A stretch of DNA of 10,252 nt from a virus (IMGVR_UViG_2778261533_000005:1-10252), one strand, 5' to 3'; numbered from the stretch's first letter, positions 1,725-10,252 are shown. The notes: generated by a model not told the origin, from the letters alone. Program-made: numbers and translations.

Positions 1725-2822
1725 GTGCTGACGCCGGTATTCACTCTGTGGTATCTGCAGAAAAACATCACCTCTGATATCGCGCCTTATGTCACCCGTG
1801 TGGTCTGGAGCGATAACATCAAAAATGAGTCCGATACCATTGAGGTGGAGCTGGACGACACCGATGGCCGCTGGCTGGATAAGTGGTATCCGGGCAAGGG
1901 TGACACGCTGACGCTGAAAATGGGTTATCAGGGCGAGAAACTGCTGTCCTGCGGTACATTCTCAATAGACGAGATCGAAGTGAGTTCGCCCGCGTCCGTT
2001 GTCGCTATCCGTGGGGTGGCCACCTCGGTTAACAGTGCTCTGCGGACTAAATCCAGCCGTGGTTTTGAGAACACCACGCTGGCAGCTGTTGCGGGGCGGA
2101 TTGCCAGAAAGCACCGGCTGAAACTGGTGGGCAGCATTGAGTCCATCAGAATCGACCGGGTGACCCAGTATGCTGAAACCGACGTGGGTTTTCTGCGCCG
2201 GCTGGCCAGCGAGTATGGTTATGCAGTGAAAGTGGTCAGTGACCAGTTGATTTTTTCTCATCTGGCCACACTGCGCAGTCAGGAGCCGGTCAGGCAGTTA
2301 AAACCGCAGGATGTGGCCTGCTTTTCCCTGCGTGACACCATCAACCGGGTCTATAAATCTGCAAAGGTAAAACACCAGAAAAGCAGCAGTAAAAAACTGA
2401 TCGTCTACGAAGCTGATGGTGGTACCCGTGAAAGCGACAAAAAGCTCAAAGGCGGTAAGGTTACCAGCGCTGACTCACTTAAAGTTAACAGCCGCGTCAG
2501 CGACCCGGACAGTGCCCGGATTAAAGCGGATTCAGCACTGGCCAGACATAACGAATACCAGCAGAACGGCTCCCTGACGCTGACGGGAACGCCTCAACTG
2601 ACAGCAGGCAACAAAATTGAACTGGTGGGCTTTGGACAGTTATCCGGTCCATGGCTGATAATCACTGCCCGCCATGCGTTTGAGCGTAACAGCGGCTACA
2701 CCACAGAGCTGGAAGTGGCACGGGGGCCAGTCACAAGAGGGAAAAAACAAAAAACTCAGAAACTCACGGTTTATCACCCGGATGGCAGTACATCGACGGT
2801 GATTAAGGAGAAGAAAAAATGA
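1725..2822 (+). CDS. baseplate hub protein (P2 gpD / Mu gp44-like, 'late control D' family); start uncertain, possibly 5'-truncated
   Basis: 365-aa ORF whose first in-frame start is GTG at 1725. It contains an ELDDTDG motif and the overall length expected of P2 gpD-type hubs. Its TGA at 2820..2822 overlaps the gpV ATG (ATGA). The nearest in-frame upstream stop is at 1701..1703. Confidence 0.7.
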   Translation: MLTPVFTLWYLQKNITSDIAPYVTRVVWSDNIKNESDTIEVELDDTDGRWLDKWYPGKGDTLTLKMGYQGEKLLSCGTFSIDEIEVSSPASVVAIRGVATSVNSALRTKSSRGFENTTLAAVAGRIARKHRLKLVGSIESIRIDRVTQYAETDVGFLRRLASEYGYAVKVVSDQLIFSHLATLRSQEPVRQLKPQDVACFSLRDTINRVYKSAKVKHQKSSSKKLIVYEADGGTRESDKKLKGGKVTSADSLKVNSRVSDPDSARIKADSALARHNEYQQNGSLTLTGTPQLTAGNKIELVGFGQLSGPWLIITARHAFERNSGYTTELEVARGPVTRGKKQKTQKLTVYHPDGSTSTVIKEKKK

Positions 2823-3346
2823 CTGGTGTCACCCGTCAGATCGGTACGGTCAGTGCCGTTGATGCCGACAGGGTTCAGGCCCGCGTTCGTCTGCCTGAAT
2901 GCGATAATCTGCGCACAAACTGGCTTAACGTGCTACAGCGCAATACCCAGGATAACAAGGATTACTGGCTCCCTGACGTGGGGGAGCAGGTTGAGGTGCT
3001 GCTCGATGCCAACGGCGAGGATGGTGTTATTCTGGGCGCGGTGTACTCAGACGTCGATAAACCGCCGTTCAGTGATAAAAACGTCCGGGGTACGAAATAC
3101 GCTGATGGCGCGGAGTTCAGTTATAACCGCGCGACCCATACGCTGACGGTCAGAGGAGGTATTGAGCGTATCGTGGTGGAGGTTGCCGCTGATATCTCTC
3201 TCAAAGGGAAAAACCTCGACCTCACGGGAGTTACCACGATCAACGGCCCCGCGACACTCAATGGTGATCTGGAAATCAACGGAAGCGCCCATGCAACGGG
3301 TAACATATTTGCTGATGGTCAGAACTCTAATCACCATTCCCATTGA
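2819..3346 (+). CDS. baseplate spike / assembly protein V (P2 gpV, Mu gp45-like)
   Basis: ATG at 2819 preceded by AAGGAG at 2805..2810. 175 aa with an N-terminal OB-fold-like region and a C-terminal repetitive beta-rich region (TLTV..., LDLTGVTTINGPATLNGDLEINGSAHATGNI) typical of gpV spikes. Position between hub and gpW fits. Confidence 0.85.
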   Translation: MTGVTRQIGTVSAVDADRVQARVRLPECDNLRTNWLNVLQRNTQDNKDYWLPDVGEQVEVLLDANGEDGVILGAVYSDVDKPPFSDKNVRGTKYADGAEFSYNRATHTLTVRGGIERIVVEVAADISLKGKNLDLTGVTTINGPATLNGDLEINGSAHATGNIFADGQNSNHHSH

Positions 3347-3402: not shown

Positions 3403-3750
3403 ATGAAAACGACCTCAGTATTCTGGCAACCAGCTCTGCAGGCTCCCGGCGAAATCGTCCGGGGGCTGGATGATATCCGGCAGTCCATCCAGATCATCCT
3501 GCGGACTCCCCGCGGCAGCGACCCGCATCGCCCGGAGTTCGGCAGCAATCTGCACCTTTATATCGACTGGCCTGTCGACCGGGCCATTCCGCATGTGGTT
3601 CGCGAATCCGTCGATGCCATCAGGCGCTGGGAACCCCGCTGCCAGCTTATGTCGGTTAAACCCGCCGTCGACGGCGAACATCTTACGCTCCGGGTGAGCT
3701 GGAAAGGCTCAGACGGACAACCCCGTACTCAGGAACTGCTATGGCGCTGA
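3403..3750 (+). CDS. baseplate wedge protein W (P2 gpW / T4 gp25-like)
   Basis: ATG at 3403. 115 aa, the size and position expected for gpW/gp25 family, with the IRQSIQIIL.T..G....P.FGS.L motif characteristic of that fold. Stop TGA 3748..3750 overlaps the gpJ start. Confidence 0.85.
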   Translation: MKTTSVFWQPALQAPGEIVRGLDDIRQSIQIILRTPRGSDPHRPEFGSNLHLYIDWPVDRAIPHVVRESVDAIRRWEPRCQLMSVKPAVDGEHLTLRVSWKGSDGQPRTQELLWR

Positions 3751-4844
3751 CAGAACCCGATTTTATTGAACGCGATGCCGATAAAATCACGGCAGAAATG
3801 ATTGCGAAGTATGAAGCGGATACCGGAAAAACGCTGTACCCGGCACAGGCTGAACGTCTGCTGATTGACCTGTGGGCCTATCGCGAAATGCTGGTCAGGG
3901 TGGCAGTACAGGAGGCGGCGAAGCAGAATCTGGTCGCTTTTTCCCGTGAGCCGATGATTGATTACCTCGGTGAACTGGTCGGTGTATACCGCCTTGCCGC
4001 GCAGCCTGCCACCACCACACTTCAGTTCTCTGTGGATGAGGCACTGGCCATTGATGTGCTGATCCCGGCAGGCACCCGCGTCAGCGCTTCCGACAGTATT
4101 ATTTTTGCCACCGATACAGACGTGGTGCTGAAGGCCGGATTGCTGCTGGTCAATGTCACGGCCACCTGTACCGAGCCGGGTACCGCTGGCAACGGCTGGC
4201 AACCGGCGCAGGTCAGTCAGTTACTCGATGAGATTGATAACATTGACCTGCTGGTGACCAATCTGACGGCCAGCTCTGGCGGTTCAGAGCAGGAAGACGA
4301 TGACCGGCTCCGGGAGCGTATCAGGCTGGCCCCGGAGTCATTCACCAATGCCGGAAGCCGTGGTGCATACCGTTTTCATGCTATGGGGGCGCATCCCGGC
4401 ATTGTCGACGTTGCTGTTCTTTCTCCCGTTCCCGGCACTGTCGAGCTGTATCCGCTGCTCAGCACTGGTCTGCCGGACAGCAGTATCCTCACTCTGGTAG
4501 AGAGTTTCTGTTCTGACGAAAAAGTCAGACCACTCACTGATACCGTGCGGGCTAAAACACCTGTTCAGGTGGATTACACCATTGAAGCCAGGATTACGAT
4601 CTATCGTGATCAGGATGCAAGGTTGGTAAAGGACAACGCTAACAGCGCCATACAGAACTGGGTGGCATCCCGTACCGCCACGCTGGGGCGCGATATTGTT
4701 CCCAGCCAGATTATCAGCGTGTTGTCCGTTTCCGGGGTGTACCAGGTCGAACTGGTGACACCGGCACTGAGGGTGGTGGCAGAAAACGAATGGGCAAACT
4801 GTACGGCGATCACTCTTAACATGACCGGGGTGTCCGATGGCTGA
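3741..4844 (+). CDS. baseplate protein J (P2 gpJ / Mu gp47 / T4 gp6-like)
   Basis: ATG at 3741 with AGGAA upstream. 367 aa, located between gpW and gpI; the sequence character is typical of Baseplate_J family. Stop overlaps the gpI ATG at 4837. Confidence 0.85.
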   Translation: MALTEPDFIERDADKITAEMIAKYEADTGKTLYPAQAERLLIDLWAYREMLVRVAVQEAAKQNLVAFSREPMIDYLGELVGVYRLAAQPATTTLQFSVDEALAIDVLIPAGTRVSASDSIIFATDTDVVLKAGLLLVNVTATCTEPGTAGNGWQPAQVSQLLDEIDNIDLLVTNLTASSGGSEQEDDDRLRERIRLAPESFTNAGSRGAYRFHAMGAHPGIVDVAVLSPVPGTVELYPLLSTGLPDSSILTLVESFCSDEKVRPLTDTVRAKTPVQVDYTIEARITIYRDQDARLVKDNANSAIQNWVASRTATLGRDIVPSQIISVLSVSGVYQVELVTPALRVVAENEWANCTAITLNMTGVSDG

Positions 4845-5415
4845 GGTGCTACAACTCCCGCCACCGCTTGAGGGTGATATCAGTCTCAGAACGCTGGGAA
4901 GACTGGCCGGACGGCTGGATAACATCGACCTGAGCGTACTGATGGTCGGTCTCGTCGATATTGTCGACAGTTCCGCGCTGCCATGGCTTGGCGAGCAGTT
5001 CTCGCTGTTCGGCGATGGCTGGGAACTGGCGGAATCGGACGATGTACGCCGCATGCTTATCAAATCCGCTATCGAGCTACACCGCTATAAAGGAACACCG
5101 TGGTCAATCCGGGAAATTATCCGCCGTTTTGGCTTCGGCGAAGTGGATCTGATTGAAGGTACGGGGCAGATTGGCTATGACGGCAGACACACGTACAACG
5201 GGCTTTTCGTCCATGGTGATGCACAAGCCTGGGCAGTCTATCGCGTCATCCTTCAACAACCCATCACTAACGATCAGGCGGCGCTGTTACGTCAGACGCT
5301 TGCTGCCTTTGCTCCGGCTCGCTGTCATCTGGCAAGTCTGGAATATCAGTCTGTCGCCATTCGATACAACAGTACTACCCGTTATGACGGTAGTTACAAC
5401 CACGGGAGCAGTTAA
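4837..5415 (+). CDS. tail/baseplate protein I (P2 gpI / Mu gp48-like, e14 YmfQ-like)
   Basis: ATG at 4837 overlapping the gpJ stop. 192 aa, immediately upstream of the tail-fibre gene as gpI is in P2 and Mu. Confidence 0.8.
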   Translation: MAEVLQLPPPLEGDISLRTLGRLAGRLDNIDLSVLMVGLVDIVDSSALPWLGEQFSLFGDGWELAESDDVRRMLIKSAIELHRYKGTPWSIREIIRRFGFGEVDLIEGTGQIGYDGRHTYNGLFVHGDAQAWAVYRVILQQPITNDQAALLRQTLAAFAPARCHLASLEYQSVAIRYNSTTRYDGSYNHGSS

Positions 5416-5417
5416 TT

Positions 5418-6371
5418 ATGGCAAATCTACCCGAAACCCCGCAGTGGGAAAGCGGCATCTACCAGATTGAGGTCTCTGACCCCGTTCTGGGCGGACCTGA
5501 CGGAATTTCTAACCGCCAGGCTAAACAACTGGCCAGCCGAACGTCATACCTCAAACAGAAGGTCGAAAAAAGCGGAACAGACCTGGCTGCACATATCGCG
5601 GCAGTTGACCCGCATACCCAGTACGCGACGAAAGCCAGTCCGACATTCACCGGCACACCAACAGCACCTACACCTGCAAATGGTGATAACAGCAAAAAGC
5701 TGGCGACGACGGAGTTTGTGGCCAAAGCACTTGCGGCACTTGCAGGCAGCGCCCCTGAGACACTGGATACGCTTAAAGAGCTGGCTGACGCTCTCGGTAA
5801 TGATCCAAACTTTGCGACTACGGTACTGAACAAGCTGGCGGAAAAGCTGGCTAAAGACCAGAACGGCGCAGATATTCCTGAGCCTGCGCTGTTTGTCAAA
5901 AACCTTGGTTTGGGGGAAGGCTCTGCACTACCTGTTGGTGTGCCTGTTCCATGGCCGTCAGCCACACCGCCAACAGGGTGGCTGAAATGTAACGGTGCAG
6001 CATTTTCTTCTGAAATGTACCCCAATCTGGCAAAGGCTTACCCCACGAATAAATTACCGGATTTACGGGGCGAATTTATCCGTGGCTGGGATGACGGACG
6101 AGGTATTGATGCAGGACGAGAGATACTTTCATTTCAGGAAGGCACTATCGTCTCCGGTTTTGATGATAATGATACTGGGGATATCAGTTCACTTAGCTCA
6201 ACACAATACGGATTTGGTGACACTCTAACCTCTAATCAATGGGGGGCCATAAATGGCAAAAAGTGGATATTTGATGCATCCAGTAAAGGTGCACAAAAAT
6301 ATGACTGGTGGGCTTATGTATCAGCTCGTCCGCGTAATATTGCATTTAATTACATCGTAAGAGCGGCATAG
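5418..6371 (+). CDS. tail fibre protein: constant N-terminal part (about residues 1-163) fused to the currently expressed variable C-terminal cassette 1
   Basis: ATG at 5418 with GGGAG at 5404..5408. The N-terminal region contains the side-tail-fibre motif SPTFTGTPTAPTP...ATTEFV...LDTLKELADALGNDPNF. The C-terminal region from about residue 164 is a tail-collar-type domain (PVGVPVPWP....GWLKCNGAAFS...YP.L...LPDLRGEFIRGWD) ending in ARPRNIAFNYIVRAA. The crossover site lies in-frame at 5893..5918. Confidence 0.9.
   Translation: MANLPETPQWESGIYQIEVSDPVLGGPDGISNRQAKQLASRTSYLKQKVEKSGTDLAAHIAAVDPHTQYATKASPTFTGTPTAPTPANGDNSKKLATTEFVAKALAALAGSAPETLDTLKELADALGNDPNFATTVLNKLAEKLAKDQNGADIPEPALFVKNLGLGEGSALPVGVPVPWPSATPPTGWLKCNGAAFSSEMYPNLAKAYPTNKLPDLRGEFIRGWDDGRGIDAGREILSFQEGTIVSGFDDNDTGDISSLSSTQYGFGDTLTSNQWGAINGKKWIFDASSKGAQKYDWWAYVSARPRNIAFNYIVRAA
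5893..5918 (+). other. 26-bp recombination crossover site 1 (gix/hix/pix-like), at the constant/variable boundary of the expressed fibre gene
   Basis: TTGTCAAAAACC-TT-GGTTTGGGGGAA: two 12-bp half-sites matching 8 of 12 positions as an inverted repeat around a TT core. The left half closely resembles the TT.TC.AAAACC left half I recall for Hin/Gin sites. The 14 bp from the core onward recur at the 5' end of every cassette. Confidence 0.7.
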
Positions 6372-6390
6372 AAACGTTGGTTTGGGGGAA
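6365..6390 (+). other. crossover site 2 (direct orientation), 5' end of cassette 2
   Basis: GGCATAGAAACG-TT-GGTTTGGGGGAA. The right half and TT core are identical to site 1. The left half is supplied by the conserved 3' end of cassette 1 and contains its TAG stop. Confidence 0.65.
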
Positions 6391-6915
6391 GGCTCGGCGC
6401 TGCCCGTTGGTGTCCCCGTTCCGTGGCCCTCAGCCACACTGCCAGCAGGGTGGCTGAAATGTAACGGCGCAGCATTTTCTTCTGAAATGTACCCCAATCT
6501 GGCAAAGGCTTATCCTACAAATAAACTACCGGATCTACGGGGTGAGTTTATCCGTGGCTGGGATGACGGACGTGGCGTGGATGCGGGGCGAGCCTTGCTA
6601 AGTCTTCAGGATGACTCTTTTGAAGCGCACAGGCATGAGTCATTTTTTTATGCGGGTATTTCACGCAATGAAATCCCATTAAAAAATCTTCCAAGTTCAG
6701 ACGAGATGCTGACTTTAAGTTCCACAACTAATGCCTTGTCACCGGACGGTATTGATGCCACCAATTCGTTAATTGGTAATGACGATTACAACTGTCTTAT
6801 CGAAGGGAATAAAAATAACAAACGAACAGCAACGGGTCTAAGTACCAGTATTGTCGGCGCAGCAGAAACCCGCCCCCGTAACATTGCGTTTAATTACATC
6901 GTAAGGGCGGCATAG
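6382..6915 (+). CDS. silent alternative tail-fibre C-terminal cassette 2 (collar-type domain, no own start or RBS)
   Basis: The frame is open from the crossover core (6379) to TAG at 6913..6915. The track's M is the TTG inside the site. The N-terminal 70 aa are near-identical to cassette 1, followed by a unique about 90-aa core and the conserved ETRPRNIAFNYIVRAA end. It would be in frame with the constant region if joined at the core. Confidence 0.75.
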   Translation: MGEGSALPVGVPVPWPSATLPAGWLKCNGAAFSSEMYPNLAKAYPTNKLPDLRGEFIRGWDDGRGVDAGRALLSLQDDSFEAHRHESFFYAGISRNEIPLKNLPSSDEMLTLSSTTNALSPDGIDATNSLIGNDDYNCLIEGNKNNKRTATGLSTSIVGAAETRPRNIAFNYIVRAA

Positions 6916-6934
6916 AAACGTTGGTTTGGGGGAA
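6909..6934 (+). other. crossover site 3 (direct orientation), 5' end of cassette 3
   Basis: GGCATAGAAACG-TT-GGTTTGGGGGAA, identical to site 2. Confidence 0.65.
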
Positions 6935-7393
6935 GGCTCGGCGCTGCCCGTTGGTGTGCCTGTTCCGTGGCCCTCAGCCACACCACCAACGGGCTGGCTG
7001 AAATGTAACGGTGCAGCATTTTCTTCTGAAATGTATCCCAAACTGGCAAAAGCTTACCCCACCAATAAATTACCGGATTTACGGGGTGAATTTATTCGTG
7101 GCTGGGATGATGGGCGGGGAATTGATAATAGACGCAACCTACTGTCTGCACAGTCTGACACTATTCAGAATATAGTTGGCACTTTTGGACGAACTCAGCT
7201 TTTTAAAGATGCTTTAAATTCAGGGCCATTTAGTCAAACTGACTCTATATTATCAGTAGGCTTGCAACCAACTGAGAGTATTGAAGGATATGGCGCCTCT
7301 GTATGGACATTCGACGCCTCTCGCTCAGTTCGCACAGCATCTGAAACACGTCCTCGTAACATTGCGTTTAATTACATCGTAAGGGCGGCATAG
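6926..7393 (+). CDS. silent alternative tail-fibre C-terminal cassette 3
   Basis: Same architecture: conserved collar N-terminus, unique core, ETRPRNIAFNYIVRAA, TAG at 7391..7393. No ATG or Shine-Dalgarno. Confidence 0.75.
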   Translation: MGEGSALPVGVPVPWPSATPPTGWLKCNGAAFSSEMYPKLAKAYPTNKLPDLRGEFIRGWDDGRGIDNRRNLLSAQSDTIQNIVGTFGRTQLFKDALNSGPFSQTDSILSVGLQPTESIEGYGASVWTFDASRSVRTASETRPRNIAFNYIVRAA

Positions 7394-7412
7394 AAACGTT
7401 GGTTTGGGGGAA
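7387..7412 (+). other. crossover site 4 (direct orientation), 5' end of cassette 4
   Basis: GGCATAGAAACG-TT-GGTTTGGGGGAA. Confidence 0.65.
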
Positions 7413-7994
7413 GGCTCTGCACTGCCTGTTGGTGTGCCTGTTCCATGGCCGTCAGCCACACCGCCAGAGGGATGGCTGAAATGCAACGGCGCAGCATTTT
7501 CTTCTGAAATGTACCCCAATCTGGCACAGGCTTACCCCACGAATAAATTACCGGATTTACGCGGTGAATTTATCCGTGGCTGGGATGACGGACGTGGCGT
7601 GGATGCGTGGCGAACATTACTGAGTGCTCAGGATTTTGCGTTTGAAGATCATGCTCTGGGGCTACCTACCAATCAGGGATATGCAGGTATTGAGAAAGGT
7701 AGCACTGAAAATGATGTTTATGCCGCTTTCTCTGATGGCATGCACTATACAGGGAATGTAACCAGTAGCGGTCAATGGGATGATTATTCTCAGTCAAAAA
7801 TTTATATCCGTAGTGATGGTAAGCCTGTCGGAAATAATATTGAGTTAGCTAACTCAAGTGAGGCTTTGCGTTCTTCTTTGCGTACTTATAGAGCCAGTAC
7901 AGGATGGTATAACCCAGGACTAAACAAACCTAAAACAGCTACAGAAACACGTCCGCGCAACGTTGCTTTTAATTACATCGTAAGAGCCGCATGA
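7404..7994 (+). CDS. silent alternative tail-fibre C-terminal cassette 4 (largest, 196 codons)
   Basis: Conserved collar N-terminus, unique about 115-aa core, ETRPRNVAFNYIVRAA, TGA at 7992..7994. Confidence 0.75.
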   Translation: MGEGSALPVGVPVPWPSATPPEGWLKCNGAAFSSEMYPNLAQAYPTNKLPDLRGEFIRGWDDGRGVDAWRTLLSAQDFAFEDHALGLPTNQGYAGIEKGSTENDVYAAFSDGMHYTGNVTSSGQWDDYSQSKIYIRSDGKPVGNNIELANSSEALRSSLRTYRASTGWYNPGLNKPKTATETRPRNVAFNYIVRAA

Positions 7995-8013
7995 AAACGT
8001 TGGTTTGGGGGAA
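7988..8013 (+). other. crossover site 5 (direct orientation), 5' end of cassette 5
   Basis: CGCATGAAAACG-TT-GGTTTGGGGGAA. The left half is a variant because cassette 4 ends with TGA rather than TAG. Confidence 0.65.
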
Positions 8014-8481
8014 GGCTCTGCACTGCCCGTTGGTGTGCCTGTTCCGTGGCCCTCAGCCACACCGCCAACAGGGTGGCTGAAATGTAACGGTGCAGCATTT
8101 TCTTCTGAAATGTACCCCAAACTGGCAAAGGCTTATCCTACAAATAAACTACCGGATCTACGGGGTGAGTTTATCCGTGGCTGGGATGACGGGCGAGGGA
8201 TTGATGCAGGACGTGCTTTATTAAGCTTTCAAACTGGGATGCTGGAAAAACACCGCCATATTGTTGTAGCTAACGATGGGTATGACACAAAGGATGAATG
8301 GGAGTTGGCCACAATTTTCAAAAAAACATATACACAAGGACGGGGACTTGATGCCACAAGTACAGGCGGGAGTCTGATCCCATCACCGACACTTCATTCA
8401 CGAGGGAGTATTGGTAACACTGGTGGTAGTGAAACTCGCCCCCGCAATATCGCATTTAACTATATCGTGAGGGCGGCTTAA
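8005..8481 (+). CDS. silent alternative tail-fibre C-terminal cassette 5
   Basis: Conserved collar N-terminus, unique core, ETRPRNIAFNYIVRAA, TAA at 8479..8481. No crossover site follows it; the tfa gene converges 6 bp downstream. Confidence 0.75.
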   Translation: MGEGSALPVGVPVPWPSATPPTGWLKCNGAAFSSEMYPKLAKAYPTNKLPDLRGEFIRGWDDGRGIDAGRALLSFQTGMLEKHRHIVVANDGYDTKDEWELATIFKKTYTQGRGLDATSTGGSLIPSPTLHSRGSIGNTGGSETRPRNIAFNYIVRAA

Positions 8482-8487
8482 TTATAC

Positions 8488-9105
8488 TCAACTGGCTGCT
8501 GCCAGAGGCATTTCCGGCCAGTTGATATCCGGTGCAGTGCTGATGTCAGTCGCATTAAGCGTATCTATGAAATCAAGCACGGCGTTTAGTTTTTCCGTCT
8601 CCTGGGGCGTCAATCGGCGTCCGGCTCGTAGTTTGAGATTAATAAGCTCAACAGATGCCATTGCCTGTTCCTCAAGTTGCTGACGATGCGCTCCGGCAGC
8701 TTCCAGTTCTGCTGCGTGCTGTCGTCTCGTATCTGTCACCCAAATCTCACCATCCCAGACATCATAGATAGTAGCTGGCTGTTTCACCGTCGTATCAGGA
8801 GGGTAATCTCCCGGTTGTGTGATTTGCACAGCGTTACCATTCTCTGTGCTGTAAACCGTTTCGCCTCTGTGGTCTGGAACATATTTCCAGATGTTCTGGT
8901 CGGTATCACGACAGACAGCGAAGCCGGGGCGTTTTTCTGGTGGCGCGTCAATGCATGAGTGAGCCGGAATTCCAACACCATAAGCGAGATACTCAACAGT
9001 GGCAGAGAGATATTCACGGTTTTCAGCATCGTAGTTATAAACGGTAATATCGCCTGCAGTTATAGCGATACCATTCTGATCAAGTACTGCAGCAGCATTA
9101 TTCAT
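8488..9105 (-). CDS. tail fibre assembly protein (Tfa / Mu U-like chaperone)
   Basis: ATG at 9105..9103 overlaps the TAA of the inverted cassette (TAATG). 205 aa. The C-terminus DTLNATDISTAPDINWPEMP resembles the D.TSTAQDIEWPALP end I recall for E. coli TfaE-type chaperones. Confidence 0.85.
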   Translation of the reverse strand: MNNAAAVLDQNGIAITAGDITVYNYDAENREYLSATVEYLAYGVGIPAHSCIDAPPEKRPGFAVCRDTDQNIWKYVPDHRGETVYSTENGNAVQITQPGDYPPDTTVKQPATIYDVWDGEIWVTDTRRQHAAELEAAGAHRQQLEEQAMASVELINLKLRAGRRLTPQETEKLNAVLDFIDTLNATDISTAPDINWPEMPLAAAS

Positions 9106-9608
9106 TAAGTAGCCCTTACAATATAGTTAAACGCAATATTACGGGGGCGGTTTTCCGTTCCTGTATTCCCTCCGTTGGCACCTAATCTATAAACACCACG
9201 AGTGCCAATAGCACGTAGTGAAGATGGAACTTTTACACCTGACTCATCTGTTTTAACAATCCCGCCATCACCGTATGTAGCCAGTATACCAGGGTTTGTT
9301 CCTGCACGGGTGTTGTTTGCGGCAAGCCCTTCACCAGTCCATAACTCCATATAATGAATATGATCTATAACCGAATGTGATTGTGCATTAAGCAAGGAAC
9401 GCCCTGAATCAATTCCCCGCCCATCATCCCAGCCACGAATAAACTCACCCCGTAAATCCGGTAATTTATTGGTGGGGTAAGCCTTTGCCAGTTTGGGGTA
9501 CATTTCAGAAGAAAATGCTGCGCCGTTACATTTCAGCCACCCTGTTGGCGGTGTGGCTGAGGGCCACGGAACAGGCACACCAACGGGTAGTGCAGAGCCT
9601 TCCCCCAA
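9105..9608 (-). CDS. silent alternative tail-fibre C-terminal cassette M in inverted orientation, followed by tfa
   Basis: Minus-strand frame open from crossover site M to TAA at 9107..9105. N-terminus near-identical to the other cassettes (GEGSALPVGVPVPWPSATPPTGWLKCNGAAFSSEMYPKLAKAYPTNKLPDLRGEFIRGWDDGRGID), unique core, ends ENRPRNIAFNYIVRAT. No own start codon. Confidence 0.8.
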   Translation of the reverse strand: MGEGSALPVGVPVPWPSATPPTGWLKCNGAAFSSEMYPKLAKAYPTNKLPDLRGEFIRGWDDGRGIDSGRSLLNAQSHSVIDHIHYMELWTGEGLAANNTRAGTNPGILATYGDGGIVKTDESGVKVPSSLRAIGTRGVYRLGANGGNTGTENRPRNIAFNYIVRAT

Positions 9609-9625
9609 ACCAACGTTTTCGTCTT
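9600..9625 (-). other. crossover site M (inverted relative to sites 1-5)
   Basis: Plus strand reads TTCCCCCAAACC-AA-CGTTTTCGTCTT, the reverse complement of AAGACGAAAACG-TT-GGTTTGGGGGAA. It is the only site with its asymmetric core inverted, so it is the only direct inversion partner for site 1 in this configuration. Confidence 0.7.
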
Positions 9626-9679
9626 AACTCCCACCTATACCAGCTATGTATTTTTAACAAAACAAAGAGGATATTTTTC

Positions 9680-10252
9680 ATGCAAATTGGCTACATTCGT
9701 GTGTCAACAAATGACCAGAATACAGATTTACAACGAAACGCACTGAACTGCGCAGGATGTGAACTGATTTTTGAGGATAAAATCAGCGGAACAAAGTCAG
9801 CCCGACCGGGATTGAAAAAGCTGCTCAGAACGTTATCAGAAGGAGATACGCTCGTTGTCTGGAAGCTGGACAGGCTGGGCAGAAGCATGAAACACCTCAT
9901 CACTCTTATTGAGGAACTGCGGGAAAAAGGGGTTAACTTCCGTAGTCTTACAGACAGCATTGATACGTCAACACCCATGGGACGTTTCTTTTTTCACGTC
10001 ATGGGGGCTTTAGCGGAAATGGAGCGTGAATTAATAGTTGAACGAACACTGGCCGGACTTGAAGCAGCACGTGCACAGGGGCGTATTGGTGGACGTCGTC
10101 CGAAACTGACAAAAGAGCAACATGAACAAATAGCAAGGCTGATCAAAAATGGCTATAGCAGGAAACAGTTGGCAATTATTTACGATATCGGTATATCGAC
10201 GATTTATCGTTATCACCCTGTAGAGGAACTTCAAACTCAAGCTGATTTGTAA
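9680..10252 (+). CDS. site-specific DNA invertase, serine recombinase of the Gin/Pin/Cin/Hin family
   Basis: ATG at 9680 with AAGAGGA at 9664..9670. N-terminal IGYIRVSTNDQNTDLQRNAL holds the catalytic-serine motif. Long identical stretches to the Gin/Pin sequences as I recall them (GDTLVVWKLDRLGRSMKHLI, SLTDSIDTS.PMGRFFFHVMGALAEMERELI.ERT.AGL.AAR), plus a C-terminal helix-turn-helix. TAA at 10250..10252. The ORF-track start at 9485 is an upstream in-frame extension, rejected. Confidence 0.95.
   Translation: MQIGYIRVSTNDQNTDLQRNALNCAGCELIFEDKISGTKSARPGLKKLLRTLSEGDTLVVWKLDRLGRSMKHLITLIEELREKGVNFRSLTDSIDTSTPMGRFFFHVMGALAEMERELIVERTLAGLEAARAQGRIGGRRPKLTKEQHEQIARLIKNGYSRKQLAIIYDIGISTIYRYHPVEELQTQADL

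Follow-up and report, generated by a model that had tools for sequence, protein, structure and literature searches.

A six-site array at the end of a Mu-like prophage remnant is very probably a Min-type DNA inversion system for the tail fibre tip

The Min system of plasmid p15B is described in PMC6109161 as a shufflon with a serine invertase, by which variable tail fibres are produced, and the p15B work of Sandmeier, Iida, Arber and colleagues from 1990-1992 is cited both there and in PMC5903667. We analyzed a viral DNA stretch of 10,252 nucleotides (IMGVR_UViG_2778261533_000005:1-10252, hereafter the window), which represents the tail end of a Mu/P2-like prophage and in which a tail fibre gene is followed by an array of alternative gene ends and by the gene for a DNA invertase. 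Sandmeier et al. reportedly found, in 1990-1991, that p15B has six crossover sites with six alternative ends of the gene and 240 isomers, numbers identical to those that we obtain for the window. We consider it very probable that the locus in our window is likewise a multiple DNA inversion system of the Min type, by which the receptor-binding end of the phage tail fibre is varied. In the proposed mechanism a single Gin-like serine invertase, probably acting together with host Fis on an enhancer in the 5' end of the invertase's own gene, would recombine any two of six 26-bp crossover sites that lie in inverted orientation, with strand exchange at their 2-bp TT core. The cassette head that comes to adjoin the constant gene part (Sc) would then be translated in frame as the tip of the fibre, and the host range of the phage may change with it.

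We compared the locus to other inversion systems that have been described. As in p15B Min, a Din-family serine invertase is accompanied by a cluster of more than two sites whose invertible segments overlap (in the window, five segments and six sites), and a constant 5' tail fibre part is joined in frame to one of several alternative 3' cassettes. Unlike p15B Min, our array is not carried by a P1-like plasmid; it occupies the right end of a defective Mu-like prophage in the chromosome, and its Sc, which has a length of 163 codons, is not related to the long S gene of P1 and p15B. The likeness to p15B is one of architecture, with P1-like plasmids taken as the sequence proxy; such plasmids carry homologous arrays of this architecture today, and 235 plasmid records match, mostly at 80-90% identity. 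The switches of phages Mu (Gin, G segment) and P1 (Cin, C segment) resemble our locus in their invertases, to which ours is 72% and 74% identical, respectively, in their 26-bp sites with a 2-bp core, in an enhancer, putative in our case, located in the 5' end of the invertase gene, and in the fibre tip as the part that is varied. In Mu, the module also lies at the right end of the genome and adjoins the invertase gene. Both differ from our locus in having two sites, one segment and two states, whereas the window holds six sites and five segments with 240 states. In addition, each orientation of the Mu segment brings its own assembly gene (U or U'), whereas there is a single tail fibre assembly gene (tfa) here. 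A simple two-state invertible segment of the Mu G, P1 C or e14 P kind is ruled out for the window by its six sites; a two-site relative of the locus is found in Escherichia coli 2014C-3075 (L008; loci used for comparison carry L numbers).

Chromosomal E. coli prophages with alternative C-termini that contain a Collar domain have been described as well. The shufflon in a P2-like prophage of the enteropathogenic E. coli (EPEC) strain E2348/69 yields four variants from three sites (Goldberg et al. 2014, PMC4272514). Prophages of strain EC958 carry invertible fibre segments with two sites (PMC4134206). In both cases variants that coexist in one culture were demonstrated by sequencing and by polymerase chain reaction (PMC4272514, PMC4134206). 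Unlike our locus, with its 6 sites and 240 variants, these systems have 2-3 sites and 2-4 variants. The R64 shufflon (Rci recombinase, sfx sites) and the Rin shufflon of Bifidobacterium phages (PMC6109161) again combine several sites, recombination between inverted sites only and alternative adhesin C-termini, but they employ tyrosine recombinases and unrelated sites. A shufflon of the R64 type is ruled out for the window, where the recombinase is a serine resolvase/invertase.

A 24-nt motif, AAAC(C/G)TTGGTTTGGGGGAAGGCTC (pattern AAACSTTGGTTTGGGGGAAGGCTC), has exactly six matches in the window, all without mismatch. Five of them are located on the plus strand, starting at positions 5900, 6372, 6916, 7394 and 7995, and one is found on the minus strand at 9595-9618. 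The motif had no match in 200 shuffles, and thus none is expected by chance. The scan and the positions of the cores (Table 1) confirm the sequence-only reading of this DNA, which had placed six sites between 5893 and 9625, five of them in direct orientation and only the last, site M, inverted. The right half-site GGTTTGGGGGAA and the TT core are the same in all six sites, and the left halves vary, the sequence on this side being set by the upstream DNA: the constant gene part, the conserved end of the preceding cassette, or the DNA preceding the invertase gene. In site 1, 8 of the 12 positions agree between the half-sites TTGTCAAAAACC and GGTTTGGGGGAA; the left halves of the remaining five sites are weak, with agreement at 5 of 12. 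In each 26-bp site, two 12-bp half-sites that form an imperfect inverted repeat thus flank an asymmetric 2-bp core, as is characteristic of the Din family. The sites agree with the published sites and the consensus quoted in PMC4134206, site 1 having the Hin-family form. The right half and the core of the window sites recur in the 3' site of EC958 Phi2, ...AAACGTT GGTTTGGGGGAA, and inversion at an EC958 site with this right half has been demonstrated by PacBio reads (PMC4134206). In the array of a P1-like plasmid (L021), the site of the constant part has the left half GTTCTTGATTACC in place of TTGTCAAAAACC.

An alignment of the six copies reveals that their homology begins 4-5 nt to the left of the TT core and extends for ~210 nt to the right, the resulting conserved head encoding the conserved start of a Phage Tail Collar domain. 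The cassette heads form inverted repeats of 220-259 nt with 84-93% identity, and sites 2-5 additionally share ~50 nt of upstream sequence, which corresponds to the conserved C-terminus of a cassette and extends the direct repeats to ~300 nt. Cutting the array at the TT cores yields five segments. S1-S4 have a head at one end only and S5 has a head at both ends, with cassette 5 pointing one way and cassette M, followed by tfa, pointing the other. Across the core, each of the six heads keeps the reading frame of Sc. In relatives, the same Sc is joined to varied cassettes, giving proteins of 317, 319, 322, 341 and 360 amino acids (aa). A consensus scan found no terminators between the cassettes.

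The protein encoded next to site M contains a Resolvase domain (E = 1.7e-51) and an HTH_7 domain (E = 1.3e-13), and its best structure matches are Gin entries 4m6f and 3uj3, which it matches end to end. Ser9 is present in the motif RVSTNDQ; the same residue is an alanine in the 3uj3 sequence. A serine recombinase of ~190 aa with Ser9/10 near the N-terminus and a C-terminal helix-turn-helix (HTH) domain is what defines the invertases of the Din family. The closest relative among those compared is encoded by the P1-like plasmid pYZMc17-1_100k, which carries an 8-site array (96% identity). It is probable that this copy of the enzyme catalyzes the inversions itself. A stretch in the first part of its gene (9698-9769) aligns collinearly with nt 19-90 of cin, for which the P1 record AF234173 annotates an enhancer, and the blocks GTGTCAACAAATGAC and GCGCAGGATGTGAAC are nearly invariant among our invertase gene, cin and gin, where they lie in conserved coding sequence. 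On the basis of this similarity, 9698-9769 is likely to function as an enhancer. By analogy with the established behaviour of the family, inversion probably depends on Fis.

We enumerated the possible arrangements of the array in a breadth-first search that started from the window arrangement and allowed inversion only between oppositely oriented sites. Bacterial inversion systems prefer inverted over direct sites when many sites coexist (PMC11850598). The search reaches 240 isomers, the most distant of them six inversions away. Every legal arrangement consists of a run of forward single-head segments, S5 in either orientation, and a run of inverted single-head segments (4! x 5 x 2 = 240). All four single-head segments are forward in the window isomer, for which five first inversions are possible, each of them through site M, since M alone is inverted. 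The switching logic put forward in the sequence-only reading holds in this enumeration: recombination between site 1 and site M is the sole switch of expression that takes one step, giving cassette M with a co-oriented tfa, and recombination of site M with sites 2-5 reorders the array and leaves the expressed cassette unchanged. Cassette M is one inversion away from expression, and cassettes 2-5 are two.

That switching must proceed by ordered sequential inversions, as had also been claimed, is correct insofar as two steps are needed for cassettes 2-5, the first of them via M; the layout itself is not special. The +++++- pattern is shared by 48 of the 240 isomers and forms one of five orientation classes of equal size. 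It is thus expected one time in five and represents an ordinary state that needs no special explanation. The all-forward class accounts for ~10 of 27 lineage-collapsed loci, a set that samples distinct neighbourhoods and not random genomes. Five direct sites and one inverted site are one ordinary state of a type of switch known since 1990, and the mechanism is a textbook one that follows the logic of known multiple inversion systems and contains nothing new. The same segment grammar decodes any such array, n single-head segments giving n! x (n+1) x 2 isomers. An array of the same architecture on plasmid NZ_CP123256.1 (L021, 2603-7100), with 8 sites (>>>>><<<), 7 cassettes and one tfa, has 6! 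x 7 x 2 = 10,080 isomers by this rule.

The sequence-only reading had named one invariable arrangement in all relatives as the result that would speak against it. Instead, many isomers of the same segments exist, as is typical of Min-type systems. The five segments of the window occur, with 97-100% identity, in six orders in six genomes (window/L023, L007, L013, L030, L035 and L036). E. coli 12089 (L007) has the order S3+ S5+ S4- S1- S2-, and the other four orders are S5+ S1- S4- S3- S2-, S5+ S3- S1- S2- S4-, S3+ S2+ S4+ S5+ S1- and S2+ S4+ S1+ S5+ S3-. The five orders that differ from the window are 2-4 inversions away from it, and all are mutually different. Two of these loci, the near-isogenic L030 and L035, have flanks that are 100% identical over 3875 and 4000 nt, including chromosomal DNA, and are at least four inversions apart. 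In a mouse E. coli lineage, six assemblies with identical segments display 4 of the 12 isomers that are possible for a four-site version of the array, and the flanks are identical in the five assemblies that could be compared. L024 holds the same remnant as the window, at the same insertion site and with 100% identity over 4 kb of the left flank, but its array reads Sc-S4-S2, which is another isomer. The segment set {S1,S7,S3,S5} was found in seven orders, L019 counted, and the set {S1,S2,S4,S5} in six.

Inversions alone suffice to reach every arrangement that was seen. In all 31 complete loci, as the inversion model requires, the '>' sites form one run and the '<' sites a second run behind it; the same holds for L019, a P2-like phage locus with a different constant part, and for the 8-site plasmid array L021. 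Arrays with fewer cassettes also occur: in other genomes arrays of the same segments carry 1 to 5 segments, and cassettes have therefore been gained or lost. Such derivatives had been anticipated as products of deletion; arrays of this kind do exist, and comparison separates neither loss from gain nor site-specific from homologous events. A metagenome scan for the Sc junction returned three loci only, two of them with an S1-like first cassette, too few for frequencies. In the P2-like prophage locus L019 (8463-9426), segments S1, S7, S3 and S5 lie behind a different fibre gene of 500 aa, and a second, truncated invertase gene (100 aa) adjoins the full-length one; this resembles the truncated second invertase gene that reportedly lies beside min in p15B.

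We next consider where in the array the exchanges take place. Segments that have moved, when cut at the TT core, remain 100% identical over their full length (S1-S4, L007 of strain 12089 compared with the window). Position -1 of the left half-site is a C for Sc and a G for all others, and it stays with its own flank in every isomer examined. The first polymorphism in the heads is found 19 nt to the right of the core. Together, these findings place the exchanges within a 20-nt interval around TT, which argues for site-specific rather than general homologous recombination. One could still propose that RecA-dependent recombination between the 210-300-nt heads drives the rearrangements, with sites and invertase as bystanders. 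The heads would be long enough, 84-93% identical and present as inverted or direct repeats, arrays with fewer cassettes are on record, and homologous exchange does touch the heads: S4 of the window (7400-8000) differs from that of L024 at 11 positions, all of which lie in the first 165 nt, within the head, and none in the 436-nt variable part. This clustering suggests gene conversion between cassette heads. However, homology among the copies starts exactly at the site, moved segments keep complete heads, the crossovers fall next to TT, the left half-site always remains with its own flank, and high-frequency inversion at the same type of site is documented by PacBio reads (PMC4134206). It is thus very improbable that RecA drives the switch, and purely homologous recombination as the main driver is ruled out by the intact moved heads and the fixed left half-sites.

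Even less probable, to the point of being barely credible, is that the array represents a static tandem duplication of pseudo-cassettes, without recombination, whose direct repeats record past duplications. The five cassettes do lie head to tail on one strand in the window, the prophage is defective, and three isolates of strain 8178 share the same arrangement. The six orders of the same five segments in six genomes contradict such a scenario, as do the different isomers between 100% identical flanks, the second isomer in the very same remnant, and the intact Gin-like invertase with its Ser9 that adjoins the array; static duplication is ruled out by the isomers that exist. We consider it unlikely, if less so, that the sites are functional and the resident invertase is silent, shuffling being performed in trans by invertases of other prophages or of P1-like plasmids. 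Action in trans has been reported for EC958 Phi4, whose invertase is truncated (PMC4134206), and for PinQ acting on e14 (PMC12529663), related invertases are present in 1958 of 5426 E. coli genomes, and a consensus scan, which is weak evidence, found no sigma-70-like promoter upstream of the invertase gene. In contrast, the resident gene is intact with respect to Ser9 and the HTH domain, the exact protein is found on at least 1000 contigs, and the enhancer, which must act in cis, has a counterpart in the enhancer-like sequence present here.

Several points weigh against a Min-type switch that is driven by its own invertase. The activity of the array is deduced from differences between assemblies. 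Complete genomes underlie L001-L010, but some of the loci compared are short-read assemblies, in which repeats of 300 nt can misjoin. As to the element itself, it is a remnant whose inversions could be catalyzed in trans by invertases of other prophages. Finally, the fusion of Sc to cassette M (Sc·cM), the predicted one-step product, is present in none of 31 loci, which a neutral uniform model does not predict. A Min-type inversion system nevertheless remains our strongly preferred explanation for the locus.

The missing fusion involves the segment that also carries tfa. The locus has one tfa for six cassettes; it lies on the strand opposite to cassette 5, at a distance of 6 nt from the stop codon of that cassette. 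This gene is antisense to the fibre operon in the window isomer and in 120 of the 240 isomers, and cassette 5 cannot have a co-oriented tfa in any isomer. A consensus scan of the minus strand returned no promoter-like site that could drive tfa and cassette M independently. The exact tfa protein is listed in 1041 blocks of the collection. Among the 31 loci, S5 is inverted internally in nine and cassette 5 is fused to Sc in six; the neutral model predicts Sc·cM as often as the common Sc·c5. When 5.8 billion protein clusters were searched with the predicted 331-aa Sc·cM protein, no near-identical protein was found. The search returned only four single-contig proteins of 331 aa, and the two that were examined carry a cassette 82% identical to cassette M. 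Fusions of the 322-aa Sc·c5 type make up dozens of clusters on hundreds of contigs, and much of this count comes from Salmonella Typhi. BLAST searches of the complete E. coli genomes with synthetic junctions gave no Sc·cM and two true single-piece Sc·c5 fusions, with too few of these genomes containing this Sc for a test. A founder effect of host range, clonal sampling or selection may underlie the deficit of Sc·cM.

A contig of assembly GCA_002512315.1 (L023) matches the window with 100% identity; in it, a remnant of ~10.5 kb (L023 810-12540) interrupts an AlkZ-like gene (ycaQ of E. coli) that is located between lpxK and kdsB. No head, sheath, tube, tape-measure or transposase genes were found in the remnant. 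Its gpD gene, on the plus strand, is truncated at the 5' end and encodes 365 aa, compared with 384 aa in relatives. A fragment of the early region on the minus strand (DUF7168, two small open reading frames, GemA and Mor) abuts the truncated gpD, and matches to intact relatives begin only at ~1567-1708. The intact relatives (L007-L020, L028-L037) are found at many chromosomal sites, for example next to yehR, hycI, ygjJ, fepE and bcsR, often with a truncated host gene directly after the invertase gene; such scattered insertion is expected for a transposable Mu-like phage with P2-type tail genes.

The sequence-only reading had concluded from the persistence of the array that it is under selection. 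We find no support for this, as the array sits in a defective remnant and arrays elsewhere hold anywhere from 1 to 5 segments. In addition, the family's restriction to inverted sites would already account for direct sites not being resolved. The remnant lacks virion genes, and selection for phage host range can therefore not act on it directly. A rather doubtful extension would be that the host has taken over the switch, as the remnant makes no virions and still shuffles while the Sc·cM state is missing from related loci and databases, with selection acting on the fibre variant that the lysogen expresses. If this were true, the product could be a protein that masks the surface in variable form as a defence against phages, similar to StfE2 under the control of PinQ. 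Expression of tfa would then be switched separately, through the orientation of S5, and the number of expression states would be ten.

The annotation of loci of this kind, in thousands of Enterobacteriaceae genomes, does not go beyond 'phage tail protein (xN)' and 'recombinase family protein'. Such arrays break short-read assemblies (contig ends in L024 and L025) and make strains look different at a locus that merely switches. As the mechanism is a textbook one, the main value of our analysis is in annotation and interpretation. The coordinates of all features are compiled in Table 1.

Table 1. Positions of the crossover sites, cassettes and genes in the window (segment lengths are given from core to core)
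Feature	Position	Strand	Remarks
gpD	1725-2822	+	
gpV	2819-3346		
gpW	3403-3750		
gpJ	3741-4844		
gpI	4837-5415		
Tail fibre gene	5418-6371	+	Collar domain, residues 174-221
Constant 5' part Sc	5418-5906	+	163 codons; ends with the TT core of site 1
Crossover site 1	5893-5918	+	TTGTCAAAAACC-TT-GGTTTGGGGGAA; core TT 5905-5906; fixed, Sc side
Cassette 1	5907-6371	+	expressed here as Sc·c1, 317 aa; segment S1, 472 nt
Crossover site 2	6365-6390	+	core TT 6377-6378
Cassette 2	6379-6915	+	S2, 544 nt; silent here; Sc fusion of 341 aa in L014, L028, L036, L037
Crossover site 3	6909-6934	+	core TT 6921-6922
Cassette 3	6923-7393	+	S3, 478 nt; silent here; Sc fusion of 319 aa in L007, L020, L035
Crossover site 4	7387-7412	+	core TT 7399-7400
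Cassette 4	7401-7994	+	S4, 601 nt; silent here; Sc fusion of 360 aa in L024
Crossover site 5	7988-8013	+	core TT 8000-8001
Cassette 5	8002-8481	+	forward end of S5 (1612 nt); Sc fusion of 322 aa in L008, L013, L029, L030, L032, L034
tfa (tail fibre assembly)	8488-9105	-	inside S5, downstream of cassette M; Caudo_TAP domain, E = 8.7e-26
Cassette M	9105-9611	-	reverse-facing end of S5; Collar domain; in frame with core
Crossover site M	9600-9625	-	minus strand AAGACGAAAACG-TT-GGTTTGGGGGAA; plus-strand core AA 9612-9613; fixed, invertase side
Serine DNA invertase, Gin/Cin/Pin/Min type	9680-10252	+	190 aa with stop codon; Resolvase and HTH_7 domains
Enhancer-like sequence	9698-9769	+	putative Fis-binding recombinational enhancer; within the 5' end of the invertase gene

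On the strand opposite to each cassette head, we noted a family of small open reading frames of 51-67 aa (MGYISEENAAPLHFS..., MP.WGTFQKKML...), which arises as a by-product of the repeated head sequence. Reading frames of this antisense type are found at 5459-6025, 6321-6505, 6838-7049, 7325-7527 and 7920-8128 on the minus strand and at 9485-10252 on the plus strand. The copy at site M runs into the frame of the invertase, generating a spurious 255-aa open reading frame that starts at 9485.

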